In this document: positions 2,142 to 64,000 of the stretch, piece after piece
Layout of the letters: every line of letters starts with the position of its first letter
Position numbering within the stretch: the stretch's first letter is position 1
Source: an uncultured virus (IMG/VR IMGVR_UViG_3300029705_003489)
Lineage: Duplodnaviria; Heunggongvirae; Uroviricota; Caudoviricetes
Reading direction: 5' to 3' (one strand)
DNA length: 64,000 bases
Virus record (IMG/VR): IMGVR_UViG_3300029705_003489
Position numbers and translations under genes: made by a program
The notes under the pieces: model-generated
The model's input: only the letters and a program-made list of their open reading frames with translations
Database searches by the model: none
Told to the model about the DNA's origin: nothing

Positions 2142-2152
2142 GAGGATGAATA

Positions 2153-4150: not shown

Positions 4151-4152
4151 GA

Positions 4153-23721: not shown

Positions 23722-24513
23722 ATGATTATTCGCAGCATGATGGCAGACAGAAAACTGCTGGTTAAGGAACTTGAAAAACGATTGGGTGTACATTCCGAGT
23801 ATAAGGGAGCCCCGGCATTTACTTACAAGGTTGGGGATTACACCATTCGCCGGGACGGACACATTGAGGTTGAGGATGAAAAAGTGAATGTAGAACTTTT
23901 AAGGGCATTGAATCAAGATGGATTTGTGGATTCTTCTTGGGATACGGATAGGGAACGGATTGTGATTACCCTTCCTTATGACGGACATACGGGAGCAACG
24001 CTTACAAATCTGGTTCACATGATTGCCGGAAGGAGCAGGCTGATAAACAAGAGCATCTGCTGCGGAAACGCATTCTATATTGAGGACAGATTCTTGGAGG
24101 CACTACGGGAGAAAGAACCGGAAACGGTGGAGGATTTCCTAAGACTGGTGGAAGAGACGGAAGCCAATTATGCAAATTTGGGATTGACCTTTGAAGCAAA
24201 CGGCATTGCATTTTCCGGATTCCCGGCATTGGAGAATACGGAAAAAATAAAAGCATTCATGGATTTGGCAAGCCTTATGAATAAAATGAGCATGACTCAA
24301 AAGAGGGTGCAGGCAACAACGGTGGAAACGGACAATGAAAAGTACGCTTTCCGCGTTTGGCTGATAAGGCTTGGAATGAATGGGGTGGAATACAAAACTA
24401 CAAGAAAACTGCTGCTAGAGCATTTGAGTGGAAATTCTGCATTCCGGACGGAAGAACAGGCAGAAACCTTCAGAGAAAACCATAGAGTAAAGAGACCGGA
24501 GGTGGAAGCGTAA
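23722..24513 (+). CDS. Conserved phage protein sharing the amidoligase C-terminal motif
   Basis: NEKYAFRVWLIRLGM.G.EYK..R also seen as NPKYAMRTWLLRLGFIG.EFK..R in the 25047 ORF. Confidence 0.75.
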   Translation: MIIRSMMADRKLLVKELEKRLGVHSEYKGAPAFTYKVGDYTIRRDGHIEVEDEKVNVELLRALNQDGFVDSSWDTDRERIVITLPYDGHTGATLTNLVHMIAGRSRLINKSICCGNAFYIEDRFLEALREKEPETVEDFLRLVEETEANYANLGLTFEANGIAFSGFPALENTEKIKAFMDLASLMNKMSMTQKRVQATTVETDNEKYAFRVWLIRLGMNGVEYKTTRKLLLEHLSGNSAFRTEEQAETFRENHRVKRPEVEA

Positions 24514-24937: not shown

Positions 24938-25040
24938 TACACAAATTTCCGTGTGTATATTTGTGTACTAATGGTATTGATAATATCTGCCTTTAGAGCG
25001 AATATGTGTGTACCGAAAGGGAAAACACATTAACGGAGGA
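24938..25040 (+). promoter_or_regulatory. Repeated promoter cassette, copy 2, with upstream inverted repeat
   Basis: TACACAAAT-12-ATTTGTGTA; TTGATA-17-GAATAT; TACCGAAAGGGAAAACA; GGAGG. Confidence 0.75.
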
Positions 25041-25046
25041 GCGACC

Positions 25047-25994
25047 ATGAACGAAAAAATGGCAAAGCAGATTGAGGAAATGAAGAAGCAGACCATCGGA
25101 GTTGAGGTGGAAATGAACAGCATCAGAAGGGATAAGGCAGCAAGGCTTGCCGCTGAATTCTTTGGCACCGGACGGTACGAGAATACCGAAGGCAGAAACG
25201 GCTACTACACCTGGTCAGCATGGGATGAGCAGAACAGGGAATGGAAATTCCAAAGGGATATCAGCATTGCGGGACCGGACATTGAAAAATGCGAAATGGT
25301 AACACCGATTCTTACCTACGCAGACATTGAGAAACTGCAGGAACTGATAAGGATTTTACGAAAAAACGGAGCCAAGAGCGACCCAACTAGAGGATGCGGG
25401 GTTCACATTCACATCGGAGCCAAGGGACATACAGCGCAGAGCCTGAGAAACCTTGCAAACATTATGGCAAGCCACGAACGGCTTTTGGCGGATGCCTTAA
25501 ACCTTGACCGGGGAAGAATGAGCCAGTATTGCAAAATGGTTGACCCACGATTTTTGGAGGAGGTCAACAAAAAGAAACCGAATTCCTTGTCAGCCTTGGC
25601 AGACATTTGGTACAATAGCCATAACGCAAGCATAGGAAGAAACCACCATTACAACGATAGCCGCTACCACATGCTGAACCTGCATGCAACTTTTACCAAA
25701 GGAACGGTGGAATTTAGACTTTTCCAGTTTGAAGCACCGTCGGGAGGAAAGCAGAACGGACTTCATGCAGGGCAGTTAAAAGCCTACATTCAGCTTTGCC
25801 TCGCACTTAGCCAACTGGCAAAGGAAGTACGGTCAGCAAGCGCAAAACCACAGCAGAATGAAAATCCAAAATACGCAATGAGAACTTGGCTCCTCCGGCT
25901 TGGATTCATCGGGGATGAATTCAAAACGGCAAGGGAACTTTATACCAAGCGACTTGCTGGGGATACGGCTTTCAGAAACGGGCGCGTGGCTTGA
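25047..25994 (+). CDS. Amidoligase_2 (COOH-NH2 ligase type 2)
   Basis: IGVEVE, DISI, CEMVTPIL, CGVHIH, RYHMLN, GTVEFR. Confidence 0.9.
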   Translation: MNEKMAKQIEEMKKQTIGVEVEMNSIRRDKAARLAAEFFGTGRYENTEGRNGYYTWSAWDEQNREWKFQRDISIAGPDIEKCEMVTPILTYADIEKLQELIRILRKNGAKSDPTRGCGVHIHIGAKGHTAQSLRNLANIMASHERLLADALNLDRGRMSQYCKMVDPRFLEEVNKKKPNSLSALADIWYNSHNASIGRNHHYNDSRYHMLNLHATFTKGTVEFRLFQFEAPSGGKQNGLHAGQLKAYIQLCLALSQLAKEVRSASAKPQQNENPKYAMRTWLLRLGFIGDEFKTARELYTKRLAGDTAFRNGRVA

Positions 25995-26748: not shown

Positions 26749-26860
26749 TACACAATAATCTGCTTCAATCTTTGGTACATTTATGAATCGAAATAACTTG
26801 ATATAATGTGCGTTTAGAGCGAATATGTACATACCGAAAGGGAAAACAAAAAACGGAGGT
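26749..26860 (+). promoter_or_regulatory. Repeated promoter cassette, copy 3
   Basis: TTGATA(26798)-17-GAATAT; 38 bp identical to copy 4. Confidence 0.75.
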
Positions 26861-26867
26861 ACATACC

Positions 26868-27230
26868 ATGAAGAAGATTGAATTGATTGAAGAAGCCATC
26901 AGAGAGCAGGGCAGAAGCCTTAAGGAGTTGGGAATTAATCGAACCCTTTACTGGGCTTACCTTTACAGCAAGGAAGCTGAAAACGAACTCATTGACTTTG
27001 GCGAGGTTGTTTGGGATTACGACATTCCGGAGCTTGCAGCGTTTTTCAAGGAACAGGGGATTGACGAATTTACAATCAGCAGCTCCTTTTCCGGACTTCT
27101 TGAAACCTTGGCAGGCTTTGAAAAAGAAGGATTTAAGGTAGCAGCCATGACAACGGTAAGGGCAAGATACACGAATTACCTTACCGGAGAAAAAGCCATC
27201 ATTCCGGCAATCAAACTGGTAAGAAACTAG
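26868..27230 (+). CDS. Hypothetical phage protein
   Basis: GGAGG RBS, own promoter and hairpin; GIDEFTISSSFSGL. Confidence 0.75.
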   Translation: MKKIELIEEAIREQGRSLKELGINRTLYWAYLYSKEAENELIDFGEVVWDYDIPELAAFFKEQGIDEFTISSSFSGLLETLAGFEKEGFKVAAMTTVRARYTNYLTGEKAIIPAIKLVRN

Positions 27231-27280: not shown

Positions 27281-27395
27281 TGCACAAATTTCTTCCGTTA
27301 TTTTTGGTACATTTATGCTCAGATATTACTTGCTATTATGTGCATTTAGAGCGAATATGTACATACCGAAAGGGAAAACAAAGAAAAACGGAGGA
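27281..27395 (+). promoter_or_regulatory. Repeated promoter cassette, copy 4
   Basis: TTGCTA(27330)-17-GAATAT; TTTAGAGCGAATATGTACATACCGAAAGGGAAAACAAA. Confidence 0.75.
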
Positions 27396-27402
27396 ACATA
27401 CC

Positions 27403-27666
27403 ATGATTGAATTTACTACGAGGGAGCATTTAGAAGAAGATTTAAGCGGATGCTTAAATGCAGCGGTTTTAAACTACGGAGACTACGTTATCACGGTTTT
27501 GGAACACTGCTTTGAAGGAATTAAGGTAGCCATTTACGAAATGGTGGAAAGCCCGGAAGAAACCGGACTTGGACGGTGCGAATGCCGCCTTATGAAGATT
27601 GAGGAAAAAAGCGGATTTAAGGATACCGGACACGGAGTCGCTTGGGCATTTGCTAAATTGCAGTAA
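27403..27666 (+). CDS. Hypothetical phage protein
   Basis: GGAGG RBS, own promoter, followed by two hairpins. Confidence 0.7.
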   Translation: MIEFTTREHLEEDLSGCLNAAVLNYGDYVITVLEHCFEGIKVAIYEMVESPEETGLGRCECRLMKIEEKSGFKDTGHGVAWAFAKLQ

Positions 27667-47458: not shown

Positions 47459-47510
47459 TTGCTATCTTTGGAATAGTATTTTAATATGTCACTACCAAAA
47501 AGGAAGGAGG
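47459..47510 (+). promoter_or_regulatory. Repeated promoter cassette, copy 5 (recombinase operon)
   Basis: TTGCTA-17-TAATAT; AATATGTCACTACCAAA shared with copy 1. Confidence 0.65.
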
Positions 47511-47518
47511 CAGATTGC

Positions 47519-49009
47519 ATGGAAATTCAAGTGATAAAACCGAGCCGGGATATTATAAAGAAGATGCGGGTATGCGCTTATGCAAGAGTATCCACATCTG
47601 ATGATGAACAGGAAAATTCACTGGAGAACCAAATGGAACATTACATGGATTTAATTAAGAGCAATCCAATGTATGAGTATGTAAAAGTGTACTATGATTT
47701 TGGTATCTCCGGTTTTAAAGAAAAACGTTCCGGCTTCCAAGAAATGATGCAGGATGCACGGAATGGAAAAATAGATTTAATTATTGTAAAGTCCATATCG
47801 AGATTTGCACGAAATACCGTCACCGTTCTGAAGGCTGCACGAGAGCTTAAAGAACTGGGTGTCGGTATTTTTTTTGAAATTCAAAACATCAATACACTGA
47901 CAGAAGCAGGGGAATTGATGCTTACGATATTATCTGCATTTGCACAGGCAGAGAGTGACAACTACAGCCAACTGACTAGAATGGGTATTCAACGCAAGTA
48001 TGAAAAGGGAGAACCGATTCGGAGGTTGGAACGCAGCTTTGGATACCGAAAGAATGAGTGTGGGGAATATGAAAAAGAGCCTGCAGAGGCACGATGGATA
48101 AAGCGTATGTATGAAATGATTGCTGACGGGTATTCTCCGGCAGAAGTAAAACGCTATCTGAATGACAATGGAGTACGGACGGTTCAGGGAAAAGAATTCT
48201 TGGATTGTACGGTTATCCGCATTATTGAAAATGAAATTTACAAGGGTGATTTTGTTATGCATAAGCACTTTGTGAATGCAGACCGAAAAGAAGTGAGGAA
48301 TAGGGGCGAAGTGGATTCTTGGTACATTCGTGATGACCATCAGCCTATCGTAAGCAGAAAACTTTGGCAGAAGGCACAGGATGCTTTGGCAGAGAAACGC
48401 GCCTATCTTGCGGAAGGCTCTGTGGTAGGAGAGAATACAGAAGAAATATACCCTTATAAAAATAAAATCTACTGCGCTACTTGTGGCCATCCGCTTTATC
48501 GCCGGGTGCATAGTTACGGAAACAGAGTAAATTGGGGATGCAGCGGGCAAAAGCGTTATAATAAAGAATTCTGTTCCGGCATTAACGTTCCGGATGCCGT
48601 TATCCGCTCTTGGGGAGAATTTGAAGGGAATATTTATATCAGCAAGGAAGAGGATTCTCTTGGGAAGGCTGAGTTTGCATTCCAAAAGGAAAGTGCATGG
48701 AAGAGGAAACACACCAAGAAAGAAATACCGGCCGTGCCTGCACTTAGCGAGGAGAATTATCCGTATTGCAAGAAAATTTTTTGCAAGAAATGTGGCAGCA
48801 GACTTACCAGAACATTTAATACTTCGGGGCAAGTGAGATGGGCTTGCCTCGGTGCCACAAAAAAAGGAATTTCATTTTGCACCGGGGTGAGGGTTCCTGA
48901 TGAAGTAGTCCGAACATGGAAATTTGAAACAGAAATACTAATTGAAGGAAAGGAAGAGAAAAATGGCAAGAAAAGTTACAGTTATACCCGCAAAACAAGC
49001 CGGAAGTAA
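47519..49009 (+). CDS. Large serine recombinase 1 (duplicated Zn-ribbon)
   Basis: YARVST, KSISRFARN, FAQAES; two YPY..KI.C..CG repeats. Confidence 0.93.
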   Translation: MEIQVIKPSRDIIKKMRVCAYARVSTSDDEQENSLENQMEHYMDLIKSNPMYEYVKVYYDFGISGFKEKRSGFQEMMQDARNGKIDLIIVKSISRFARNTVTVLKAARELKELGVGIFFEIQNINTLTEAGELMLTILSAFAQAESDNYSQLTRMGIQRKYEKGEPIRRLERSFGYRKNECGEYEKEPAEARWIKRMYEMIADGYSPAEVKRYLNDNGVRTVQGKEFLDCTVIRIIENEIYKGDFVMHKHFVNADRKEVRNRGEVDSWYIRDDHQPIVSRKLWQKAQDALAEKRAYLAEGSVVGENTEEIYPYKNKIYCATCGHPLYRRVHSYGNRVNWGCSGQKRYNKEFCSGINVPDAVIRSWGEFEGNIYISKEEDSLGKAEFAFQKESAWKRKHTKKEIPAVPALSEENYPYCKKIFCKKCGSRLTRTFNTSGQVRWACLGATKKGISFCTGVRVPDEVVRTWKFETEILIEGKEEKNGKKSYSYTRKTSRK

Positions 49010-50336
49010 AACTGGCAAGAAAGCAACTGAGGTAAGGAAAACCCGAGTGGCTGCATACTGTAGAGTCTCTACGGATGAGGATGAACAGTTAAATTCCTTT
49101 GAAAACCAAGTGGAATACTATACTCGATATATTACGGGAAATCCGGCATATGAATTGGTAGATATTTATGCGGATGAAGGAATATCCGGTACGAACACAA
49201 GAAAGAGAAAAGAATTTCAACGCATGATTGCTGACTGCGAGGCGGGAAAAATTGATATGGTAATTGTAAAATCGATTTCACGTTTTGCAAGAAACACGCA
49301 GGACTGCTTAATGTATTCACGACAGCTTAAAAATTTAGGAATAGGTATAATTTTTGAAAAGGAGAACATCAACACGCTAGATGCGAGTGGTGAACTCCTT
49401 TTTACTATTTTAAGCTCCCTCGCACAGGATGAGTCAAGAAACATTTCTGAAAACTGCAAGTGGGGAATCCGTAGCAAATTTCAAAAAGGAATACCGCACA
49501 TCAATACCTTTAAATTCATGGGATATGACAAGGATAAAGAAGGGCGTTTGGTAATCAATGCAAAGGAAGCAAAATTGGTTAAAAGGATTTTTAAAGAATT
49601 TTTAGAGGGTTTCAATCCGGCAGATATAGCAAGGCGATTAAATGAAGAAGGAATTCCGGGAGTAACCGGAAAGCCACAATGGAGCAGGCAGACGATACGT
49701 GGTATGCTGCAGCAGGAAAAATATATGGGTGACAGCATATTGCAGAAATGGGTAACCACGGATTATCTGAACCATAGCCTACGGAAGAACAACGGAATAG
49801 TAGAGCAATATTATGTGGAAAAATCGCATCCAGCAATTATTGATAAGGAAACATGGACAGCGGTGCAGGAAGAATTTGAGCGCCGGGAGGCTTATTGCAA
49901 AGCTCATCATTTGGCTGCATACTCATACCGAGCTGACATAAATGCATTCAATAGCAAGGTTATTTGCGGAAAGTGCAATCTTGCCTTTGCTAGAAAATCA
50001 TGGACCAGAAAAGGCTTTGTGGGATGGGAATGCAAGAGCGAGGATTTTGGCGGTTATGTAAAAGAAGAAACTTTAATGCAGGCTTTTATAATGGCATGGA
50101 ATTATACCGTGAAAAACAGGGATAAATTCATGGGGCATTGGGAAGAACAGGCTGACGGAAAGGAACCGCTTAAGAAAATCCGTGCAAAGCAGATGATGGA
50201 ACTTACTAACGAAGGAACGATTACCACATTTTTGCCGGAACTGGTGCAGATGGTACTTGAGAAGGTTGTGGTGCATGGCAAGGAACACTTTACGGTTTGT
50301 TTCTTGGATGGCTCGGAAAGAGAAATTTTATTATAA
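48963..50336 (+). CDS. Large serine recombinase 2
   Basis: YCRVST, YADEGISG, KSISRFARN, LAQDES, SHPAII. Confidence 0.93.
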   Translation: MARKVTVIPAKQAGSKTGKKATEVRKTRVAAYCRVSTDEDEQLNSFENQVEYYTRYITGNPAYELVDIYADEGISGTNTRKRKEFQRMIADCEAGKIDMVIVKSISRFARNTQDCLMYSRQLKNLGIGIIFEKENINTLDASGELLFTILSSLAQDESRNISENCKWGIRSKFQKGIPHINTFKFMGYDKDKEGRLVINAKEAKLVKRIFKEFLEGFNPADIARRLNEEGIPGVTGKPQWSRQTIRGMLQQEKYMGDSILQKWVTTDYLNHSLRKNNGIVEQYYVEKSHPAIIDKETWTAVQEEFERREAYCKAHHLAAYSYRADINAFNSKVICGKCNLAFARKSWTRKGFVGWECKSEDFGGYVKEETLMQAFIMAWNYTVKNRDKFMGHWEEQADGKEPLKKIRAKQMMELTNEGTITTFLPELVQMVLEKVVVHGKEHFTVCFLDGSEREILL

Positions 50337-50359
50337 GAGCGAGTGAACAAAAGGAAGGG

Positions 50360-50394
50360 TGCAGAGCAGGATTGTATTACTGTTGCACCCTTCC
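50360..50394. terminator. Hairpin between convergent operons
   Basis: GGAAGGGTGCA / TGCACCCTTCC inverted repeat. Confidence 0.65.
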
Positions 50395-50411
50395 ATAAGA
50401 TATATCATTTT

Positions 50412-51344
50412 TTATTCTGATGCAACGATTGAAGTCTCATCACTTTGGAACAGAGCAATCTGCTCGTTTTCATCCGGAATGGAGTCTGGCACTGGAACTT
50501 CTTCGACATCTTCTTTTTCTATTTTATCCTTTGCCTTTGCACCTTTATGGGAATACAATTTATTGAATTGGAGTGGTCGCTGGCATTTCTTGTTGTATGC
50601 GATGAGCATGGCTTCGGAATATCCGAGGGAGCCGGCACGGCGGTCTCTTGCAGTGCGGCTAAGTTCCTTTATGGAAAGGCGGCCAAGTTTTTCAATGAAT
50701 GTACTGTCTTTTAACTCATCTCCGTAACAGTGAAGGAGTCTGGCAACACCGTTTATCATATTGGCACTGAAAGATTTCTGCTCACCTTCCCAAGTTCCGA
50801 TGATAAGTCGAATGGAGTGATCAAGAATATGGTATCCATATTTTTCGTATACGCTTTCCAAAGTGGAAACCGCACAAATTCCACCGGGCTGAGCTTTGCC
50901 GGATACTACCATATCATAAGATTCGACCAGTGATTTTATAATAAGCTGTTTATTGTTTCCTGCTTCAATGTTTGCCATGAAAATCTCATATGGCTGTAGT
51001 GCTTTGGTATATTTCATCTGATTGGCAAAAATATCTGCTTCTTGCGTGTATTCCAAATCGTCATAAATCATGCACCATACTGGGGTTTCACGAGAGCCGG
51101 ATACTAATGCAATGATTTCTATGGTATGCTGTCCGTTAAATACATAGTTTACGTTATCTCTACGGCTGACCTTTACAGGATTGATTTGATATAAATCAAA
51201 ATTGGCAGCAGCATTTTGTACGTGTTTTACGGAAACGTTACGCTGATAATCCTGATTGGACACAAGATTTTTAATGGGGATTAATTCATAATGTACTTGG
51301 GGGATAAATTGCTTTAAATATTCTTCATCTGTTGTTTCACTCAT
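50412..51344 (-). CDS. ParB/Srx-like domain protein
   Basis: DYQR...NPVKVSRR...YVFNGQHT. Confidence 0.75.
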   Translation of the reverse strand: MSETTDEEYLKQFIPQVHYELIPIKNLVSNQDYQRNVSVKHVQNAAANFDLYQINPVKVSRRDNVNYVFNGQHTIEIIALVSGSRETPVWCMIYDDLEYTQEADIFANQMKYTKALQPYEIFMANIEAGNNKQLIIKSLVESYDMVVSGKAQPGGICAVSTLESVYEKYGYHILDHSIRLIIGTWEGEQKSFSANMINGVARLLHCYGDELKDSTFIEKLGRLSIKELSRTARDRRAGSLGYSEAMLIAYNKKCQRPLQFNKLYSHKGAKAKDKIEKEDVEEVPVPDSIPDENEQIALFQSDETSIVASE

Positions 51345-52287
51345 GATATTCCTCCCGGATAATTTTTTGTAGTGTATTGATTTGATCTTCAAGTGCAGCT
51401 AATTGGTTATCTAATTTGTATAGGGCTTCTGTTGTAGCATCACCAAATTTTGCGAGTGACATGGTTCGTTTCATTGAACTAATCCACATCGGGATTGTTA
51501 AAGTGAGGCTAGATAATTCTGCATCAGGGTCATACTTTGGCATCTGCTTAATTACAGGCTTAGGTAAATTCCGGTTTTCCTTTTTGATACGTTCCTTATC
51601 TCGTTGTACGCTTTTCTGCATTTCAGTGGGAAGTAAGCGTTGCCCTTTGCCGTTTTTAAAACGTGTATGAATTACGCGGATTTCCTCGGCAGACAATTTA
51701 CTTAGTTCCACAGTATTTGTATGCCGGATATGAAAATTTCCAAGTAAGATATCATCCACGATTTCTGGTGCTTTTTTATCGAGTTCATCCAGTGCTTCAG
51801 AATAAGTTTTATATTTACAGATAGAACCTTCGGACATAGGATAATACTTTTCGATTAGGGTAGCAGTAAGGTTTTTGGTGGATGTAAAATTAGGCCTGCG
51901 AAGTTCAGCAGGAGTATATTGATTCTGCACCGGGTATTTTTCATGAAATAACCGTTTTTGAGCATTATATAATTTACCAACACAGTAATGCATTTGTTCT
52001 TCCACGAGTTCTGCATTTTTTAAGGACAATAGGCAAATGTGAGAGATGGCCTCATTACGGGAAACAAAGTCTATTTCCTCGATGTGGAATGGTATGGATA
52101 ACTTATGGTATAATCCGTAAAGCGTGAGTCCCTCAATAACAATTTTATTCCAAACAACGATAGGTTTTTGGTATGCTTCATATAGGATTTTACGCTCCAA
52201 TTTTGCATATTCTTCCGGTGTGGCAGCAGGAGTAAGTTTGGCAAATTCTCTATCAATTATTAAGTTATAAAGATGTTTTTCATTCAT
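51337..52287 (-). CDS. Degenerate ParB-N-like protein
   Basis: IDREF..L.P...EEY..LE..I...PIVVW...IEG. Confidence 0.65.
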   Translation of the reverse strand: MNEKHLYNLIIDREFAKLTPAATPEEYAKLERKILYEAYQKPIVVWNKIVIEGLTLYGLYHKLSIPFHIEEIDFVSRNEAISHICLLSLKNAELVEEQMHYCVGKLYNAQKRLFHEKYPVQNQYTPAELRRPNFTSTKNLTATLIEKYYPMSEGSICKYKTYSEALDELDKKAPEIVDDILLGNFHIRHTNTVELSKLSAEEIRVIHTRFKNGKGQRLLPTEMQKSVQRDKERIKKENRNLPKPVIKQMPKYDPDAELSSLTLTIPMWISSMKRTMSLAKFGDATTEALYKLDNQLAALEDQINTLQKIIREEYHE

Positions 52288-52290
52288 ATG

Positions 52291-52689
52291 TTATTCCTCA
52301 ATATTTTCTTCTAGCAGAATGGAATCTGCCATACAAAATGTAACCAGTTTTTCAGCTTCTATTAAGCGTCCTTCGATGTGATAACAGTGTCCGTCCTTCC
52401 AGTTGAAACCATCGGCAATACTACGAAGTTTCAAGATAAGGTAGGTACTGTATAATTCACAGCATTGTTTTCCACCGACCAATGACCACTTGATTTTTTC
52501 AGAATACATATCATTGGCACCGCAGCTCCGAAAGGCAAGAGTGGAAGTATTTGGGTTTACGAGAATCTGTATGTATTTTGGATTGCCAAGGAGATGCAGT
52601 GTTGTTTTATGAATACGGATTCTGCATTTCTTTAGGTCCATTAGCAGAGAAGGACGGATTGAGGGTGAGTTGCTCATAAGGTTGTTCAT
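52291..52689 (-). CDS. Small protein paralogous to the recombinase-3 C-terminal domain
   Basis: YIQILVNP....LAFR...W....YHIEG...F; GAGGA RBS before ATG 52689. Confidence 0.75.
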   Translation of the reverse strand: MNNLMSNSPSIRPSLLMDLKKCRIRIHKTTLHLLGNPKYIQILVNPNTSTLAFRSCGANDMYSEKIKWSLVGGKQCCELYSTYLILKLRSIADGFNWKDGHCYHIEGRLIEAEKLVTFCMADSILLEENIEE

Positions 52690-53344
52690 TGTTTGGTTCC
52701 TCACTTTCTGTTAGGGTGATTATTGCTTCTGGAGTGGTCTGTTGAGTATCAGCTTCTAAACCAAATACAGCGTATCCATTAAAGAGATTAATCTGCATGG
52801 CGGCACGGTGTTCAGCCACTGGCACACCAAACTGATTTTTCCAATCCTCTGGATAGGCTGGGGTGCGGGCAGTGGATGTTTTTCCATCTTCTTTTACGGT
52901 ACGTTTATAAATTTCCGGTGCATTTAAATCAAACACAAATAATAATTCATCACCGGACTTGATTAACTTACCCAATAATTTATAGCGGTAGTCAGGATTC
53001 CATTCCATAAGGGAAAGAACCTTTGCAAAAAACATTCTGCAAGTAATCTGCTTTGGAGAGCGTTTGTTGGTGGCAGAGCACCACCGGAAAGAATCTTTCT
53101 CATCTTCCTTACATGGACGAACGGCTAATTTCTTGTTTTCCGGGTTTACAAGAATCTGAACATAGTCAAATTCAGGAAGCTTTTTGATACATGCGGTGTT
53201 GACAGACACCTTGTAGTTATTAAAGGTAAATGATGGTTCATAAACATGTGCGAAAAATTCTCCTCGAACAACTTGGTAGCCTTCGTAGCTAAAGGCATCA
53301 TCCTCGATGATTTCAATTTCATTTGTCATAGGGTCTCTACTCAT
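52607..53344 (-). CDS. Protein paralogous to the recombinase-3 C-terminal domain
   Basis: GYQVVRGEFF...YVQILVNP....LAVRP...W....RYKLLG...FDL; AGGAGG RBS. Confidence 0.8.
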   Translation of the reverse strand: MSRDPMTNEIEIIEDDAFSYEGYQVVRGEFFAHVYEPSFTFNNYKVSVNTACIKKLPEFDYVQILVNPENKKLAVRPCKEDEKDSFRWCSATNKRSPKQITCRMFFAKVLSLMEWNPDYRYKLLGKLIKSGDELLFVFDLNAPEIYKRTVKEDGKTSTARTPAYPEDWKNQFGVPVAEHRAAMQINLFNGYAVFGLEADTQQTTPEAIITLTESEEPNNEQPYEQLTLNPSFSANGPKEMQNPYS

Positions 53345-55214
53345 TTTGTTCCTCCTGTCGTATTCCTTCAATTATGATTTCAATATTTCTTTCTAGTTCG
53401 TCCGGACTTGTGGTTTGGAGAGGATTTGGATTGAAGGTTGTTCCTTCATTTTGTGTATTCCAGTTTCCGGTTCTTGAAAATGTGGCTAATTCTTTGGCTT
53501 GAGACTGTCTGTAATAGTCATTGCCAAAGGAATGCATCCAGTTCTCAGGAAAAGCCCGGATGCTAGATTTTGTTCCTAGTGGCTTTATGTTTTCATCGAA
53601 TGGTGGAAGAACAGTTTCTCCGTTTTCCTCCGTATCAATGGAAGTGTGGGGAATGAGAACTTCAATGTCTGTTAAGTTAAAAACAATGACGGTTTCACCG
53701 GGACTCTGCATTTTGACTCCAATTATTCGGTATTTGCATTCGGTTTTCCAACCAAATAAATCGTATAGATTCGGCAGAAAGGCCGCACCGGAAATTTGTC
53801 TTGGAATAAGTAAACCGTTGTGAAGTTTGGAACACTGGACAGCGTGCTTGTTTTCCTTCATGGATGGTCGCAGAGCAAAAAAATGCTCACCGGGATGTAC
53901 CAACATCTCAACATACTGGGTATCGAATTTTCTTACGCATTCGGTACTGAAATTGATGTGGTCAATGGAAAAAGTGGCACATATTTTATTTGCAGTATCG
54001 AAGAATTGAGCTCTGGCAACTTCAAATCCACGTAAGTCAAAGTCACCAGTATTTCTTTCTACGGGTTTTAGCTTGGGCATCGCTAAGGCGTCATAAACAC
54101 TTTCTGAGGCAAGCATATAATCACTGGCTTTAAAACCAGCCCAACGAGGATTGATGGAAACATAACCTCGTAGGGCTCCCTGTGTAATAACATGGAGTTC
54201 AGGCAGCATTCCCTTGTTTCCATACTTCGCATTACTGATTAAGTGCTGCACGGCAATAAAATCATCTCTGCTTATGATGGCCTCATGGTGATTACGCTGA
54301 CGATATTGGTTACGGTCTTGACGGTTCTTTTTGGACTTATGGTCAAGGTAACTGGGAGTCCAAGTTTTACGTGCAAGTACATCACCACAATGTCTCTCAT
54401 TTTGGAGGACACCAAGGACTGAACCGGGAGACCATTGCGTGTTTCCTTTCTTTGTTCTTCTGCCGAGTGTGGTCAGCGTATCTGCGATTTTTTGACAGGT
54501 ATAACCGTATAGATACATGAAGAAGATGAGTCGGACGGTTTTTGCTTCCTCTTCATTGATAATCAAATTACCGTCTTCGTCTTGGTCATAACCAAGAAGT
54601 GGGGGAGTCAGAAAAATACCTCTACGAAAGCGCATCTCAACGGAAGCATTCATAATTTCACTTTTATTATGGCTTTCTTCCTGTGCCAAAGTAGAAATAA
54701 ATGAGAGGCTCATTTCACTATTGGCATCTAATGTGTAGATGTTTTCCGTTTCAAAGAACACACCTATAGGTGGTTGCATGGCTGCAAGCTGTCGGACATA
54801 TCCGATGCAGTCCAATACATTTCTTGCGAATCTTGACACACTCTTGGTAACGATTAAATCGATTTTTCCGGCACGGCAATCCGCAATCATGCGAACGAAA
54901 GAGTCCCGGTGCTGGAGGGATGTTCCAGAGATGCCTTCGTCTGCATAGATTTCAATAAGTTTCCATCCGGGGTGTCGGCTGACAACATCTTGGTAGTGGT
55001 TCTTTTGAAGTTCGTAAGAGGAAGTCTGTCTTGGGTCATCGGTAGAAACTCTGGCATAGACTGCGACACGTTTCTCACGGTCATCTTCATAGAAATTGGT
55101 CTGGGGGAGAGCAGGAATGACATCCAACTCATCAGCATTTAGTCCCTTGTAACGTTCACGAATTTTTTCTTTTTGACTGGCTGCATTTCGAAGCTTTCCT
55201 TCATTCTCTTTCAT
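53337..55214 (-). CDS. Large serine recombinase 3 with atypical C-terminal domain
   Basis: YARVSTD, YADEGISG, KSVSRFARN, LAQEES, HEAII; no Zn-ribbon, instead GFEVARAQFF...YVEMLVHP. Confidence 0.93.
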   Translation of the reverse strand: MKENEGKLRNAASQKEKIRERYKGLNADELDVIPALPQTNFYEDDREKRVAVYARVSTDDPRQTSSYELQKNHYQDVVSRHPGWKLIEIYADEGISGTSLQHRDSFVRMIADCRAGKIDLIVTKSVSRFARNVLDCIGYVRQLAAMQPPIGVFFETENIYTLDANSEMSLSFISTLAQEESHNKSEIMNASVEMRFRRGIFLTPPLLGYDQDEDGNLIINEEEAKTVRLIFFMYLYGYTCQKIADTLTTLGRRTKKGNTQWSPGSVLGVLQNERHCGDVLARKTWTPSYLDHKSKKNRQDRNQYRQRNHHEAIISRDDFIAVQHLISNAKYGNKGMLPELHVITQGALRGYVSINPRWAGFKASDYMLASESVYDALAMPKLKPVERNTGDFDLRGFEVARAQFFDTANKICATFSIDHINFSTECVRKFDTQYVEMLVHPGEHFFALRPSMKENKHAVQCSKLHNGLLIPRQISGAAFLPNLYDLFGWKTECKYRIIGVKMQSPGETVIVFNLTDIEVLIPHTSIDTEENGETVLPPFDENIKPLGTKSSIRAFPENWMHSFGNDYYRQSQAKELATFSRTGNWNTQNEGTTFNPNPLQTTSPDELERNIEIIIEGIRQEEQNE

Positions 55215-55291
55215 GCAGAATAACTCCTTTCTGCGGTGTTTCTATTACACCCTGACGTTATAAAAAATTATATTTGTCGAATAAATAAAAT

Positions 55292-55333
55292 AAAAGCGAC
55301 TGTGGGTTTACCTATCAACCTACAGTCGCTTTT
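55292..55333 (-). terminator. Intrinsic terminator between the XRE gene and recombinase 3
   Basis: AAAAGCGACTGT / ACAGTCGCTTTT inverted repeat. Confidence 0.75.
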
Positions 55334-55364
55334 CAATGAAAAATATTTGTATTTAAATGAGTTA

Positions 55365-55709
55365 TTATTGTTCTTTTGCTTTTCGGAGAGCATCCTTCAT
55401 ATCACGAACCATTTTCGTGATGGCATGGGTTTCGTCAGCAGTGCAGTCAGATAATATATCGCTGATTTCTCGACTTTGGATGGCACTCACTTGTGGAATA
55501 TCTGTACGGAGCAACCAGTCAGCAGAAACTTGAAGCGCTTCTGTCAAGCGCATAAAGATATCTAAACCGATATTTGTTTTTCCGTTTTCAATATCGCTAA
55601 TATGAGTAATGGAAACTTGGGCCTTTTCTGCCAAATCAGCTTGACTGAGCCTTTGTTGTTTTCTTGCTTCACGTATGCGATAACCAATGTCTTTTATTTT
55701 GCTGTCCAT
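55365..55709 (-). CDS. XRE-family HTH regulator
   Basis: IGYRIREAR...LSQADLAE...HISDIENGK. Confidence 0.9.
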   Translation of the reverse strand: MDSKIKDIGYRIREARKQQRLSQADLAEKAQVSITHISDIENGKTNIGLDIFMRLTEALQVSADWLLRTDIPQVSAIQSREISDILSDCTADETHAITKMVRDMKDALRKAKEQ

Positions 55710-55847
55710 AGAACACCTCATCGTTTATCGTGTATGTTTTTTGTTATTTTATACACAATAGACGAAGAATAAAATAGTCTACGGTTGAAGTTATCGCCTA
55801 TCGGCTATATATTTAGCAAGAAAATTTTCAAAGGAGGTAACTTTTTT

Positions 55848-56210
55848 ATGTCAGTGAATTACAAAATCATTGGTAAACGAGTTAAGGAGGTGCGAAAAAG
55901 AAAACAGCTTTCACAGGCAGAATTAGCTGAAATGTCAAATTTATCTACACAATATGTAAGTCAGATTGAGACGGCAAAAAAACAAGCCAGCCTGCAGTCG
56001 TTGGTAAGCATATCTAAAGCGTTGGAGATTTCACTTGATGAATTGCTGGCCGGTAATCAGATAAATCGTCCTACAGAGTACATAAAGGAAGTAGATGATG
56101 TGTTCCGAGACTGCAGCAGATTTGAGAAAAGAGTCCTGTATGAAGTGATGAATGAAATCAAACGTATTTTACGTGAAAATGAAAGTCTGGTTGAGAAAAA
56201 AGAGTCATAA
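55848..56210 (+). CDS. XRE-family HTH regulator (divergent paralogue)
   Basis: IGKRVKEVR...LSQAELAE...YVSQIETAK. Confidence 0.9.
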   Translation: MSVNYKIIGKRVKEVRKRKQLSQAELAEMSNLSTQYVSQIETAKKQASLQSLVSISKALEISLDELLAGNQINRPTEYIKEVDDVFRDCSRFEKRVLYEVMNEIKRILRENESLVEKKES

Positions 56211-56358
56211 TTGGTCTGGGTTGAAAAGATTGGTCACGCACAGTCTTTTCAACCGTTTATGTAATGAAATTAAGGGAAGAATTTGGCATTTTATCTTGCA
56301 TAAGAAAGAAAATATTGTTATTCTGTAAACAGATATTTTAATAACGTGGAGGACAGAT

Positions 56359-57057
56359 ATGAGCATCGAGGAATTCGTAGAAAAATACAAAGATTTTTTT
56401 ATGGCAACGGAGTTGGATGTAGCTAAATCAATTAAGGGAAAGTGGTATCTGTCTGCATATAACGAAGAATATTCTTATTACGATTGTTTTGTGGAATTTG
56501 AAACTGTGGAAGAACTTGTTGACTTAGTGACGAGAGAATGGGCATTCCTTGTGAATTGTGCCATTGATTACGAAACGGATGTTCCAGTATTTGAAAAGAG
56601 TATTGTAGACCAGTTGGAATCCTATACGAAACCGAGTATTGAATATGAGGAATTGCTTTATAACTTAAAAGCTATTGTGAATAGTGAACTTGGAAATATT
56701 GAAATGTTTAAATATTTGGATTCTTTTATTAAACTGAAGCAAAAATTGGGAAATTCAGCCTCAAAAACTTTTCATGATGAAAATGACGAAGCTTGCATTC
56801 GAGTCGGAGAAGAAAACGATGCAAAAGGTAGTGTGGTGTATTATTATTTGCCAGATATAGATGTTTTAGGTTTGATGATAGGTACAGTTAGTTACATTTA
56901 TCGAAATGATGATATGTGGGAACCGGACTTTAATAACTGGATTCTTGACCGGATACATGGGTGTATGGATTATGGAGCTGATGAAAAGTTGTTTAGGGCA
57001 GATCCGGTTAGCAAAGAAGAAGCTAAGAAAATCATGACTGAACTGAAAAATCGATAG
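56359..57057 (+). CDS. Hypothetical protein
   Basis: 232-aa ORF, GGAGG RBS. Confidence 0.7.
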   Translation: MSIEEFVEKYKDFFMATELDVAKSIKGKWYLSAYNEEYSYYDCFVEFETVEELVDLVTREWAFLVNCAIDYETDVPVFEKSIVDQLESYTKPSIEYEELLYNLKAIVNSELGNIEMFKYLDSFIKLKQKLGNSASKTFHDENDEACIRVGEENDAKGSVVYYYLPDIDVLGLMIGTVSYIYRNDDMWEPDFNNWILDRIHGCMDYGADEKLFRADPVSKEEAKKIMTELKNR

Positions 57058-59053: not shown

Positions 59054-59452
59054 ATGGAAAATACGCAGATAAAATTAATAGGTTCATCTTTATCGACACG
59101 TACAGCGACTATTTTGTGGAGAAACGGAATCTCATATTTACATGAACTCACTAATTACTGTGAAGAAACATTAGTGGAGTTACGGAATATTGGTCCCAAT
59201 GCAGTGGAAGAAATTAAGGAGTTTTGTTTCAAATATGGGGTACATATCTTTAACCGAGAAGCACTACTTTGTGAGGAGATTGGAATTGAGTTGACTCCGG
59301 CAGAGTATGCAAAGGTCTTCAAGTATGGTATATCTGATAAACAGGATTTGTTTGATACAGATGGTGTTTTACTGGAACGCGAGTTTGGTGCAAATTCGGT
59401 TCTGTGCAAAAAACTAAAAAAAATAAAATTGCATATGTATGAAGGACTTTGA
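59054..59452 (+). CDS. RNA polymerase alpha-CTD-like protein
   Basis: LSTRT...L.RNGI..L.EL....EE.L..LRNIG..A..EI. Confidence 0.75.
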   Translation: MENTQIKLIGSSLSTRTATILWRNGISYLHELTNYCEETLVELRNIGPNAVEEIKEFCFKYGVHIFNREALLCEEIGIELTPAEYAKVFKYGISDKQDLFDTDGVLLEREFGANSVLCKKLKKIKLHMYEGL

Positions 59453-60406: not shown

Positions 60407-62539
60407 ATGAAAAAAGGAAAGAAACTTTGGTGGATATTATTTGGTTTTACAGCAGTAATGACACTATTTTCATTTTCAATAACACCGGATTATGAGGCAA
60501 GTGCAAAGGATTTATTTTTGTATCGCTTTAGTGGCGCTCTTTTATTTGGTGTATTTGCAATAGCTTTTCTCATTCAGACCGATATAGGCGGAATAAAGCA
60601 AAAGTTAGGCTTAGAATCCATAAAGAAGAAAGTATTGTTTTGGATTGCTACGGTTGCAGTAAGCATAACAGCTTTTGGCGTTGTTGATGGTATGACAAGT
60701 GAGGAATTTCGGAATGCAAGAATGTCGCTTACTGTTACGCCGGCTCCAACCGCTGAACCTACGATTACAGAAATAGCAGTAAACGTTGATAAAGCGATGC
60801 CTACGGATGTTCCAGAACCTACAGGAACGGTAACACCAACGGAAGTTCCTACTCCGATTAGTGAGCCGACACCAACCAGTGTTGTGAAGGTTGCTACACC
60901 AACTCCGACACTTGCTCCGGAAGAGACCGATATTGATGGTTATGTCTTTAATTTTGATAATGCAGTATTCGAAGTAAACGGATTGGAAATTACTTTCTAT
61001 TCTGTAGAATTTGAAAAAGAGCTTTCCGTGGGTGGCTATTCTACGATATTTGAATATTCTGTAAAGAATACTGGTACTACAGAAGCAACTTTAAAATTTG
61101 CTACTACAAATCAGTTATATTTTAGTGATGGGGATTTAGCAGTACTTGCAGTACAGGCAATAAATTCTTCTAAGCAAGGATATGAAACCAGTTACCGTTT
61201 ACAACCGGGAGAAGAAACAGAAAAGACTAAAATTCTTTTGACGGCAACTTCCAGTACTACGGATGCACGCATTGATGGTATTGATTATCCTAAGATTACT
61301 ATCGAAAATATTATGTCCACGGAGCCTGTAACGATAGGAATTACTTTTACAGGCTGGGTAAATGATAATCAAGAATCTACAAAAGTAACTTTCAATGTCA
61401 ATGGTGGAGTAGAAGTAAGTCCGATAGATACACCAACTCCTACACCGGAACCTACCAATACACCAACACCAATGCCAACGGTGGCTCCAACGAATACTCC
61501 GGTTCCAGAACCGGAAGTGTCATTAGAAGATAGCTGGTTCTCGGTTATATATTTTAATGTGGGCCAAGGAGATGCTGCATTGGTTGAATGTGACGGTCAT
61601 TATATGTTAATTGATGGTGGAACTTCGTCATATTCCAGTACATTATATTCCTACTTGAAAGAACAGAAAATTGATACTTTGGATATTGTGGTTGCGTCTC
61701 ATGCACATAATGACCATGTAGGTGGACTTGCAGGTGCTTTAAATTATGCTAAGGCTGATTTGGTATTGTGTCCGGTAACGGAATACGACACGGATGAGTT
61801 CCGAGCATTTAAGAAATATGCAGAGAAGAATGGTCCCGGTATTACAGTACCGGAAGTCGGAGATACATATCGGCTAAGTAATGCTACGGTTACAATCAAT
61901 GGTGTAAATGCCGGTGCTGATAATGATACATCGATTGTTATGACTGTTGAATACAGAGGAGAAAAATTTGTATTCACAGGTGATGCAGAGTATGCTGCAG
62001 AAGTGGCTGCGGTAAAGAATATCGAAGGTCCTGTAATGGCATTAAAGGTAAGCCATCACGGAAGTGATACATCATCTACATATCAGTTTTTACGTGAAGT
62101 TGCTCCGATTTATGCTGTAATTTCATGTGGTTATGGAAATGAGTATGGCCATCCAACAGAAACGGTGTTGAGCCGACTTGATGATGCAGATGCTGAAATA
62201 TTAAGAACTGATTTACAGGGAGATATTTATTTCGAATATACCGAAGGTGAGTGGTATTACGGATATGAAACGGAAGTGGATTATGCACTTATTTTAACAC
62301 CGGGTAGTTCATTTGTGGCTGATACAGGAGACACTGATACAGAAACCACTGTCGATAGAAACAACACATCTACTTCTGGTGCAGATTATATCGGCAATGC
62401 AAACAGTATGGTATTTCATTATCCGGGATGTTCCAGTGTAAAGCGGATGAAGGAATCTAATAAGCGCTATTACGAAAATGTAACAAGAGAAGATATGATA
62501 AATAAGGGTTATAAGCCATGTGGTAATTGTAATCCGTAA
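60407..62539 (+). CDS. Membrane-anchored ComEC/Rec2-like metallo-beta-lactamase hydrolase with PT-rich linkers and C-terminal Ada-like Zn site
   Basis: 3 N-terminal TMs; VGQGDA, SHAHNDHVGG, TGDAE, SHHGS, ISCG..N.YGHP; FHYPGC...GYKPCGNCNP. Confidence 0.88.
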   Translation: MKKGKKLWWILFGFTAVMTLFSFSITPDYEASAKDLFLYRFSGALLFGVFAIAFLIQTDIGGIKQKLGLESIKKKVLFWIATVAVSITAFGVVDGMTSEEFRNARMSLTVTPAPTAEPTITEIAVNVDKAMPTDVPEPTGTVTPTEVPTPISEPTPTSVVKVATPTPTLAPEETDIDGYVFNFDNAVFEVNGLEITFYSVEFEKELSVGGYSTIFEYSVKNTGTTEATLKFATTNQLYFSDGDLAVLAVQAINSSKQGYETSYRLQPGEETEKTKILLTATSSTTDARIDGIDYPKITIENIMSTEPVTIGITFTGWVNDNQESTKVTFNVNGGVEVSPIDTPTPTPEPTNTPTPMPTVAPTNTPVPEPEVSLEDSWFSVIYFNVGQGDAALVECDGHYMLIDGGTSSYSSTLYSYLKEQKIDTLDIVVASHAHNDHVGGLAGALNYAKADLVLCPVTEYDTDEFRAFKKYAEKNGPGITVPEVGDTYRLSNATVTINGVNAGADNDTSIVMTVEYRGEKFVFTGDAEYAAEVAAVKNIEGPVMALKVSHHGSDTSSTYQFLREVAPIYAVISCGYGNEYGHPTETVLSRLDDADAEILRTDLQGDIYFEYTEGEWYYGYETEVDYALILTPGSSFVADTGDTDTETTVDRNNTSTSGADYIGNANSMVFHYPGCSSVKRMKESNKRYYENVTREDMINKGYKPCGNCNP

Positions 62540-62989: not shown

Positions 62990-63415
62990 ATGACAGAAAT
63001 TCAAGGAATGCAGATTTTGAGTTTACGCAAACAAGGACTTGGTTATAAGCAGATTGCTTCGATGGTTAGTGTCTCTCGTGATTCTGTTCGCAGTTATTGT
63101 AAATGCAGAGGATTGGGAGGATATCAGGCAGCAACACAAGTCAATATGAAAGAACTATTGAAGCGAGGCGAAGCCTGTAGTTTCTGTGGAGGGACTATCA
63201 AGAAAGCAACAACAGGCAGACCAAAGCGATTCTGCTGCGATGAATGCAGAATGAGATATTGGAAAGGACACCGAAGTGAAGTGAAAAGAAGTCCCAGTGC
63301 GATTTATATCCGGGAATGCCCTTACTGTAAGGAGATATTTGAAGTGTATGGTAATAAAACGCAGAAATATTGCTGCCATGACCATTATATAAAGGACAGA
63401 TTTTATCAAGAATAA
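62990..63415 (+). CDS. HTH + Zn-finger protein (copy 2, paralogue of 20150)
   Basis: About 80% identical to 20150..20602 by manual alignment. Confidence 0.88.
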   Translation: MTEIQGMQILSLRKQGLGYKQIASMVSVSRDSVRSYCKCRGLGGYQAATQVNMKELLKRGEACSFCGGTIKKATTGRPKRFCCDECRMRYWKGHRSEVKRSPSAIYIRECPYCKEIFEVYGNKTQKYCCHDHYIKDRFYQE

Positions 63416-63474: not shown

Positions 63475-63581
63475 ATCTTTATATCTTTCGTTCTCAGGTG
63501 CATAATTCGGGGGAATGTTGTCATATGAACATATATTGCAGAATATCGGAGAAGTAAAAGGGTAAATATAAAGGAATTAGG

Positions 63582-63585
63582 CGGG
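63582..63585 (+). repeat. Right attachment core CGGG
   Basis: Directly precedes C TTG CAT ATT TCG (GLHIS) of comEC. Confidence 0.8.
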
Positions 63586-64000
63586 CTTGCATATTTCGAT
63601 GCTGTGCATGGGATTGTTCCGGATGCTTCGGAAAATGACGGTACCGCTTCGGTTATCTGTGGCGATAGCTTCGATATTTTTAATGTTCTATGTAATCTTC
63701 ACCGGAGCAAGTACTTCGTCGGTCAGAGCGGCAATTATGTGCCTGGTTACTTTTGGTGCCGTGCTACTGCGAAGGAGCTACGATTTGCTTTCTTCTCTTT
63801 CTTTTGCTGCTATTGTAGTTACTGTGAGATGGCCTGCAGAAGTAGACTCAGCCGGCTTTCTTCTTTCTTTTGGGGCAGTGCTTGGGATAGCTTTGGCGCA
63901 GGAGATAGAATATGTGGTGCTTCAGACGCGGGAAGGAAAACGTCCGTGGTGGTGTATATTTTTGTTCAGCGGCATGATACAGTGTGTTACTATGCCGGTA
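63584..64000 (+). pseudogene. comEC: 3' fragment of ComEC (runs out of the window)
   Basis: GLHISMLCMGLF...FTGASTSSVRAAIM...RRSYDLLSSL...AGFLLSFGAV; in-frame TAG at 63578-63580 just upstream. Confidence 0.93.

Follow-up and report, generated by a model that had tools for sequence, protein, structure and literature searches.

Canonical large serine recombinases tell attP from attB through a zinc-ribbon domain and set the direction of recombination through its coiled coil and a separate factor. These enzymes are prized for genome engineering, and control of direction by the coiled coil is the textbook model. How a member of this family would operate with neither part is the question raised by a locus in the 64,000-nucleotide stretch of DNA analysed here (the window), which comes from the uncultured Caudoviricetes virus IMGVR_UViG_3300029705_003489 and whose positions serve as coordinates throughout. 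Five open reading frames (ORFs) occupy 55214-50412 on the minus strand, all overlapping or abutting in operon-like fashion: the serine recombinase LSR3, two small proteins (ORF2 and ORF3) and a further pair (ORF4 and ORF5). A preliminary description of the window had recognised this five-gene module, had remarked that its recombinase was without the usual zinc ribbon and coiled coil, and had read it as a heteromeric recombination machine with ParB-like partners. We found the layout to be as described, and we found that the C-terminal domain of LSR3, here called X, recurs in ORF2 and ORF3. The cassette is a real, widespread and uncharacterised variant of the serine-recombinase modules of gut Bacillota. 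It may be a recombination (integration or excision) machine with X as a working subunit, a reading based on sequence comparison to which we would give a probability of about one half.

The LSR3 core and the missing zinc ribbon

Three serine recombinase genes lie within 47486-55214, and LSR3 is the only one without a zinc ribbon. Pfam identified a Resolvase and a Recombinase domain in LSR3 (Table 1) and no zinc ribbon (PF13408, Zn_ribbon_recom) at E<=0.1, and no coiled coil was detected, which bears out the earlier remark; in the same scan the zinc ribbon was matched in the neighbouring LSR1 (E 6.7e-13) and LSR2 (E 0.0063). LSR3 was assigned to the integrase family PHROG 95 (E 2.9e-89), and the best NCBIfam match of its core was CcrB (E 1e-27, 97 bits, far below the cut-off of 900). 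The context of the catalytic Ser57 (ARVST) was invariant in the 16 aligned LSR3 homologues. As judged from these comparisons, the LSR3 core is an intact serine-recombinase core. X sits where canonical large serine recombinases bear the zinc ribbon and coiled coil, and it ends in a conserved tail motif (Table 1). The X domain of ORF2 is trailed by the same P..W...FG motif, in which F181 is nearly invariant and G182 invariant across the family.

Three homologous copies of X

The unit denoted X is common to the LSR3 C-terminus, ORF2 and ORF3, with a similarity well above chance level. BLASTP related LSR3 392-564 to ORF2 27-182 with an E-value of 1e-18, LSR3 to ORF3 with 1e-4 and ORF2 to ORF3 with 3e-7. 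An X profile built from 65 diverse ORF2-family members matched LSR3 385-586 (hhalign Prob 99.7, E 2.9e-26) and ORF3 23-127 (Prob 96.2, E 2.5e-9), and this profile comparison upholds the homology of the three segments that had been proposed from an alignment by eye. A maximum-likelihood tree was made of 40 X segments (13 LSR3 C-termini, 13 ORF2, 10 ORF3 and 4 free short forms), which were picked to span the diversity of the loci, with the near-identical L011-L034 copies omitted. The paralogues formed separate clades (LSR3 C-termini 96/89, ORF2 100/93, ORF3 100/100); the LSR3 C-termini and ORF2 were sister clades (100/98), and the shortest branches were those of ORF2. Because each paralogue forms a clade of its own, the triplication is old and every copy has been kept. 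The likely start of ORF2 is the ATG at 53344 (Met10, the start of the cluster representative), which overlaps the LSR3 stop, and the true start of ORF3 may lie further downstream.

The AlphaFold2 model of ORF2 had a mean pLDDT of 82.7, with values above 90 for residues 20-190 and low confidence in the acidic C-terminus. In the model, X runs beta-beta-alpha-beta-beta and continues with a helix and long hairpins; no long helices are present in X. This order hints at two beta-beta-alpha-beta-beta-like halves; hhalign of the N-half against the C-half gave no detectable relation and no internal repeat.

Upon comparison with known folds and families, X remained without a firm relative. ORF2 and ORF3, as well as ORF4, had no match in Pfam, PHROGs or NCBIfam. 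No PDB entry matched the X model in Foldseek at E<=0.001 (sliding clamps ranked best, with TM scores of ~0.1), and when PDB sequences were searched with the X profile by hmmsearch, 0 matches reached E<=10. In a structural search against representatives, MraZ came first (1n0e, Z 3.9, root mean square deviation (rmsd) of 4.4 over 97 residues), and MraZ entries were again on top in a second search (9r4j/9sz7, Z 4.0; 9qlg, Z 3.5); the overall rmsd was 4.0-4.8 over 97-101 residues, and Z-scores of 3.5-4.0 are below the level held meaningful. Plant B3 DNA-binding domains matched the model with Z-scores of 2.3-2.5. Between the X profile and five MraZ sequences from related genomes, hhalign gave a Prob of 0.06 and an E-value of 0.74. 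The AbrB/MraZ-like barrel that had been suggested for X has in its favour the top rank of MraZ in two structural searches, at low Z-scores, and finds no support in the profile comparison; it is the best available structural lead from the model, not an established fold.

Additionally, a BFVD search with the X model found only small unnamed phage proteins (best, KSY1 Gp105, E 5.6e-5), and many such proteins of the X fold are present in this viral structure library. The ESM Atlas returned for ORF2 only clusters auto-named hypothetical protein or 'putative integrase'. Twelve longer ORF2-family matches that seemed to be fusions were checked and not accepted as such, the neighbouring domains being unrelated (tail protein, GATase, CysS) and the joins being apparent gene-calling read-throughs; one of the 12, a protein of 359 residues, bears a Resolvase domain.

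Fused and split forms

Residues 1-358 of LSR3 were 40-44% identical to recombinases of 370-404 residues that end right after the recombinase domain and have no X, including those of Phi1207.3 (orf2), phi-SsuHCJ31_comEC, phiNJ3 and several Heliusvirales phages. In all four cases tested by hhalign against the X profile, the gene directly 3' of the short recombinase encodes a free X protein of ~140 residues (PV036428, Prob 95.8, E 7.6e-9; Phi1207.3 Orf3, Prob 95.9, E 6.5e-9; PV036413, Prob 98.0, E 1.5e-13; PV036444, Prob 97.4, E 1.4e-11). The gene order in PV036444 is lysis genes, LSR1, LSR2, short LSR3, X and prophage end, which makes an in-line three-recombinase module at the extremity of the element. 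This alternation between fused and split X, recognised at the level of sequence, is a new observation of the present work. Since X is either fused to the recombinase or encoded immediately 3' of it, it is probably a functional partner of this recombinase clade, and the genomic evidence that the recombinase would work together with the free X copies is good.

The ParB-like pair

ORF5 belongs to DUF6551 (Pfam E 7.1e-33, above the cut-off), and its likely start is the ATG at 51344. It also has a weak match to TIGR04172 (DGQHR, E 0.0019), and we take its NGQHT motif to resemble DGQHR, a motif of DndB-type proteins. The accessible text of a recent preprint places DUF6551 among the ParB-CTPase-fold families and reports a screen in which phage members of it bound CTP or ATP (bioRxiv 10.1101/2025.10.10.680097).

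The ORF4 alignment consisted of 16 sequences from related loci, and its AlphaFold2 model, which rests on these, had a pLDDT of 83.8. In the Foldseek comparison the N-domain of pNOB8 ParB ranked highest (5k5d/5k5a, E 1e-4 to 9e-4, prob 1.0), ahead of ParB, Noc, Spo0J and KorB entries; the TM scores were 0.33-0.41. ParB_N was also the lead for ORF4 in the ESM Atlas. In particular, the model contains a ParB N-domain, a helical DNA-binding-like part, a conserved 'KQMPKYDPDAE..LTIP.W' motif and a long C-terminal helix. This model gives ORF4 a ParB-like fold, and the ParB-like nature first described for the two downstream genes holds for ORF5 by its Pfam family and for ORF4 by the Foldseek comparison. 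No similarity between ORF4 and ORF5 was detectable by BLASTP. ORF4 has no Pfam ParB match, and in contrast to ParB systems, no ParA partner or centromere-like repeats were seen at the cassette.

Distribution of the cassette

The ORF2 family comprised 1,888 clusters at 90% identity with E<=0.001 (of 2,071 candidates) and 1,518 representatives at 50% identity, 892 of them with E<=1e-10. A few members were named 'integrase' in their sources, and none carried a Pfam domain. We surveyed 48 loci from species-representative genomes, each read as far as its contig reaches; they were mostly from Lachnospiraceae, together with one Gastranaerophilales and one Anaerovoracaceae metagenome-assembled genome (MAG). 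The order LSR3-ORF2-(ORF3)-ORF4-ORF5, on whose conservation the preliminary description had made its reading depend, was kept in all 48 loci; ORF3 was undetected in three (L044, L045 and L049) of the 47 loci spanning its position. Identity to the window proteins across the loci was 67-89% for the LSR3 core and 34-59% for its X domain, mostly 58-74% for ORF2 (43-52% in the most distant loci, L048 and L049) and 31-54% for ORF3; among the X paralogues, ORF2 is the best conserved.

Among 50,697 phage records, ORF2 was present in 19, of which 16 were 'Ca. Heliusvirales'. One of the phage records, PV036410, has the same seven-gene layout as the window, with the endolysin, LSR1 and LSR2 followed by the convergent cassette. 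The accessible text of the Heliusvirales paper mentions just a common 'DNA invertase', by annotation only (PMC11283538).

Outside phages, a near-identical block of ~7.2 kb (87-99% DNA identity) was found in many Lachnospiraceae genera. The element that holds it is an insert of 19.4-21.8 kb, by which a CpaF-like secretion ATPase gene is interrupted at one and the same point in G002, G003 and G004. The island junction was the same in 9 of 10 aligned loci, ~480 bp beyond ORF5, and the island ends bear a short inverted repeat. The cassette is located at one end of this island, exchangeable restriction systems (type I or MmeI-like) occupy the interior, and three tyrosine recombinases with DUF6262 and TnpV are at the far end. 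In G003, LSR3 was the sole serine-recombinase match (one place), inside the 19.4-kb insert; the insertion is not assignable to LSR3 because of the tyrosine recombinase trio.

The cassette was also found directly beside host-type genes. In a Roseburia MAG (L049), an XRE gene, LSR3, ORF2, ORF4 and ORF5 fill ~4.8 kb between host-type genes; its left flank was matched in 55 of 81 genomes of the genus, only over the first ~700 of 1,261 bases, and in none of the five loci inspected was its right-flank MCP gene adjacent. FtsH, UvrC and HPr kinase directly follow ORF5 in the Gastranaerophilales MAG (L044), and in L002 BirA is ~600 bp from the XRE gene. From the phage, island and host-gene contexts, the cassette behaves as a portable unit near element ends, beside defence-type cargo.

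Two further observations concern single loci. L044 encodes, upstream of its cassette (40-2469), a fusion of a reverse transcriptase with a nitrilase-type domain, which resembles defence cargo. In the Anaerovoracaceae MAG (L048, 8001-11235), ORF2, ORF4 and LSR2 each match in fragments, which looks like a decaying copy.

Insertion of the prophage in comEC

The prophage of the window is of siphovirus type and of the Phi1207.3/Heliusvirales kind, and the last 420 bases of the window encode the Competence domain of host ComEC. The prophage/host junction falls between the comEC codons '..ISG' and 'LH..'. In an independent gut metagenome (run X7), two uninterrupted comEC alleles matched the window from 63584 and 63588 onwards; because these contigs run leftwards into intact comEC ('GISHILAISG'), the prophage ends inside comEC at ~63582-63590. 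The left prophage end is beyond the window.

Similar insertions were evident in relatives. In genome G005, comEC is interrupted at the identical profile position by a 58-kb prophage whose cassette starts 2.8 kb from the junction, and the PV036410 record opens with ~49 nt of comEC, which is again split at this position. A third recombinase with X was present in all comEC-inserted relatives examined (window, G005, PV036410 and Phi1207.3). In G005, an 8-bp identity, TGCACCTG, is common to both junctions; since these bases vary between sister prophages, it does not assign a crossover. The end motifs of related elements, searched in the window, occurred at chance level (1 match against 1.35 expected; 1 against 1.05 expected). 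From these comparisons, the genomic junctions cannot be assigned to any single recombinase among LSR1, LSR2 and LSR3.

We also observed a phage-side protein of 710 residues (60407-62539, plus strand) whose metallo-beta-lactamase domain shares 28-33% identity with the corresponding part of host ComEC in related loci. This ComEC-like nuclease domain is thus encoded ~1 kb from the comEC gene that the phage disrupts.

Comparison with known systems

LSR3 shares the catalytic and recombinase domains, including the conserved catalytic serine, with the integrases of phiC31, Bxb1 and Listeria A118 (LI integrase), and it differs from them in that X replaces the zinc ribbon and coiled coil and has additional free copies. 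CcrA and CcrB of SCCmec, which its core matches best in NCBIfam, are recombinases that work as a pair, like LSR1/LSR2. Ccr proteins bear zinc-ribbon-type C-terminal parts, and we know of no X or ParB-like partners for CcrA/CcrB.

The closest described elements were Phi1207.3 (Tn1207.3), Phi10394.4 and Tn1207.1, which are of the same lineage as the window and have in common with it polymerase A, a D5-type primase-helicase, an SNF2-type helicase and LlaJI-like restriction. Like the window, Phi1207.3 has a zinc-ribbon pair after the lysis genes, a third recombinase without a zinc ribbon and an insertion in comEC (PMC4260502, accessible text). Its orf2 product is 40.7% identical to LSR3 14-358, and Orf3 is the X-profile match given above. 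Unlike in the window, the third recombinase is short (370 residues), X is separate (138 residues), there is no ORF2-type copy and no ParB-like pair, and the third recombinase is located at the prophage end opposite to the zinc-ribbon pair. The accessible text of the Phi1207.3 report lists three 'resolvases' of the serine type, reports integration into comEC at a GA dinucleotide, names orf2 a resolvase by homology only and gives Orf3 no function (PMC4260502).

In streptococcal integrative and conjugative elements (ICEs) with serine-integrase triplets, three serine recombinase genes are likewise near one element end, a host gene is disrupted, the junctions have 2-8-bp repeats, and 10 of 42 integrases are without a zinc ribbon (Ambroset et al. 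2016; PMC4701971, accessible text). In contrast to the window, the triplet members have the same orientation, and no X or ParB-like genes are described in that text (PMC4701971); LSR3 is convergent on LSR1/LSR2, which is not the same-strand, element-extremity layout of the integration triplets.

A literature search whose coverage left subscription journals outside found no description of the X domain or of the five-gene cassette. The earlier statement that no characterised system has this architecture accordingly holds as far as characterisation is concerned, and is to be amended in that Phi1207.3 (orf2-orf3) and the streptococcal ICEs (their serine-integrase triplets) are described elements with unannotated relatives.

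Proposed role of the cassette and other explanations

If the cassette is a recombination machine, X would stand in for the zinc ribbon by binding the outer recombination site and/or governing site pairing, acting in cis when fused and in trans when free. The fast-evolving fused X of LSR3 would be the target reader, a role that fits its identity of only 34-59% against 67-89% for the core. ORF2 would provide a constant adaptor or partner surface, perhaps towards the ParB-like pair, which fits its being the slowest-evolving copy with a tail motif in common with LSR3. ORF3 matches in size the free X found in short systems; together with ORF2 it may have an accessory part, completing or gating the synaptic complex. 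ORF4 and ORF5 may serve as DNA clamps or organisers that are switched by nucleotides and tie recombination to the element's state. Where an island has no other serine recombinase, the cassette is probably its integrase; in the phage, it would act beside or together with the LSR1/LSR2 pair. These specific roles of individual subunits are much less certain than the overall assignment, and the heteromeric machine proposed in the preliminary description is partly supported by the comparisons above.

Several points weigh against a recombination machine of this kind. The cassette in the window is 8.4 kb inside the comEC junction and not at the prophage end, and every well-delimited carrier of the cassette has another candidate integrase (LSR1/LSR2 in phages and the tyrosine trio in islands). 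Some Heliusvirales phages are without the long cassette. The ends of the L049 unit are not fixed, no empty site having been found among the 81 genomes of the genus. Additionally, DNA binding by X is only suggested by the weak, top-ranked MraZ (Z 3.5-4.0) and B3 (Z 2.3-2.5) matches of the model.

The presence of the cassette in some Heliusvirales phages and its absence from others would also be explained if it were a selfish mini-element of ~5-7 kb (the XRE genes and LSR3 to ORF5) lodged in phages and islands, the phage itself integrating by LSR1/LSR2. The G+C content of the cassette (0.40) is intermediate between the phage body (0.43-0.46) and the flanks, the cassette is found without phage genes beside host-type genes, and the ~7.2-kb block is 87-99% identical between islands with differing neighbour cargo, all in keeping with such an element; Streptococcus prophage records end with LSR2 homologues, as would be expected if the pair is the phage integrase. 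However, the window revealed neither ends nor a target duplication of such an element, the short recombinase and X of PV036444 are in line with LSR1-LSR2 at the prophage end and look like one module, and the third recombinase with X accompanies every comEC insertion examined. We hold a mini-element to be improbable but credible. That two ParB-fold proteins are unusual beside an integrase leads to a different explanation, namely, that the cassette resolves, inverts or segregates element DNA, or serves in defence or exclusion against related elements, and is not an integrase. In agreement with this, phage DUF6551 proteins bind ATP or CTP (bioRxiv 10.1101/2025.10.10.680097, accessible text), anti-phage cargo is recurrent (type I/MmeI-like restriction, reverse transcriptase-nitrilase, RES toxin domain and AAA_15/21 ATPases), and the common Heliusvirales recombinase is termed 'DNA invertase', by annotation only, in the accessible text of PMC11283538. 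No inverted target sites stand out around the cassette, however, the elements are chromosomally integrated and plasmid-type partition is not obviously needed, and the closest named LSR3 relatives are Ccr- and phage-type integrases; on balance, we consider a non-integrase function quite unlikely.

ORF2 and ORF3 might alternatively be antagonists that compete with LSR3 and hold it off until induction, as a built-in inhibitor or directionality switch in place of the classical factor. Free paralogues of a functional domain are a common route to dominant-negative regulators, LSR3 is without the coiled coil through which classical directionality factors act, and the cassette is under XRE-type regulators. 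In the short-form systems, however, the free X protein is the only X and so must complement the recombinase, and the tail motif that ORF2 keeps in common with LSR3 suggests shared partner binding rather than competition for sites. Antagonism by ORF2 and ORF3 appears very unlikely to us.

The recombination-machine reading can be extended to a modular ('split') serine integrase with a constant core, in which site choice and direction would be set through exchangeable X subunits and ParB-type nucleotide switches would replace the coiled coil and the directionality factor. This extension is doubtful. If it held, target specificity could be changed by swapping X, direction would be set by the X paralogue and the nucleotide state present, and the control logic would be one not previously described for serine recombinases. 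More generally, in a very common clade an undescribed domain, which can also come as a protein of its own, has taken the place of the zinc ribbon and coiled coil. The role of X would reveal how such enzymes find and pair sites without the known apparatus, and X might yield recombinases with a separate, swappable targeting subunit. It would also be the first functional lead for Phi1207.3 orf2/Orf3, for the third member of integrase triplets and for a core block of a gut phage order that is widespread.

Setting of the cassette in the prophage

The features of the locus and the prophage are collected in Table 1. LSR1 and LSR2 are an overlapping pair (47486-50336) 3' of the lysis genes, convergent on the cassette, and LSR2 shares 49-50% identity with the pair of terminal recombinases in Streptococcus Phi-m46.1 and Javan-type phages. 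The gap between LSR2 and ORF5 was bridged by one contig of metagenome run X1, probably the source run (48575-51257), and the hairpin in this gap is likely, from its sequence, to be a two-way terminator. Homologues of the XRE gene upstream of LSR3 adjoin the cassette in some related loci. The inverted-repeat scan of 50250-57000 yielded only the two hairpins of Table 1. Twelve alignment 'skips' inside the cassette (e.g. 53497>55154 and 54269>55627) were not accepted as rearrangement, because in 10 of the 12 the short side had fewer than 30 letters at 90% likeness, and such joints usually come from other organisms.

Table 1. Positions of the cassette genes, their domains and neighbouring features (window coordinates unless a genome and contig are given)
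Feature	Position	Strand	Basis or remarks
LSR3, serine recombinase	53337-55214	-	625 aa; catalytic + recombinase + X domain + tail
LSR3 catalytic (Resolvase) domain, residues 50-199	54618-55067	-	PF00239, E 8.9e-26
LSR3 Recombinase domain, residues 221-327	54234-54554	-	PF07508, E 4.2e-24
LSR3 X domain and conserved tail, residues 385-586	53457-54062	-	hhalign against ORF2-family profile
LSR3 tail motif P556..W559..F563-G564	53523-53549	-	invariant in 16/16 LSR3 homologues
ORF2, free X-domain protein	52607-53371	-	254 aa
ORF3, minimal free X-domain protein	52291-52704	-	137 aa
ORF4, ParB-like	51337-52287	-	316 aa
ORF5, DUF6551	50412-51392	-	326 aa
LSR1, zinc-ribbon serine recombinase	47486-49009	+	Pfam
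LSR2, zinc-ribbon serine recombinase	48942-50336	+	Pfam
Hairpin, 11-bp stems	50353-50394	.	between convergent LSR2 and ORF5 stops; read from sequence
Hairpin, 17-bp arms, 94% complementary	55292-55333	.	between XRE gene and LSR3 start; repeat search
XRE-type regulator, upstream of LSR3, same strand	55365-55721	-	PHROG 8 + 3 (transcriptional regulator/repressor)
Divergent XRE-type regulator	55785-56210	+	PHROG; homologue adjoins cassette in most related loci
Methyltransferase, AAA_5 and LlaJI-like restriction system	0.9-5.6 kb (888-5625)	+	
Repressor-like gene	7.1-8.1 kb		
Replication genes	9.5-22 kb		
Terminase through tail genes	28-46 kb		
Holin and amidase	45.9-47.3 kb		
Genes without assigned function, after XRE regulators	up to 63.4 kb	+	
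C-terminal part of host comEC	63581-64000	+	Pfam Competence, E 5.6e-26, from profile position 30
CpaF-gene islands (L010/L054/L055)	G002:C12 410359-432182; G003:C1 457552-476999		

The window showed no wrap-around, and its flanks had no megablast match in the phage collection. The methyltransferase, AAA_5 ATPase and LlaJI-like endonuclease at 888-5625 are of the same kind as the SpyI cassette of Phi1207.3. Repeats of ~75-107 nt with 80-87% identity (24977-25051, 26768-26872 and 27300-27406) surround two amidoligase-like genes (23722-24513 and 25008-25994). The small phage protein encoded at 59054-59452 (plus strand) has a region like the C-terminal domain of the RNA polymerase alpha subunit (PF03118, E 1.4e-7). 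Finally, an HNH-associated gene of 150 residues (phrog_2308) is present in two copies with 76% DNA identity (20150-20563 and 62990-63406), of which one precedes the methyltransferase and the other adjoins the prophage end.

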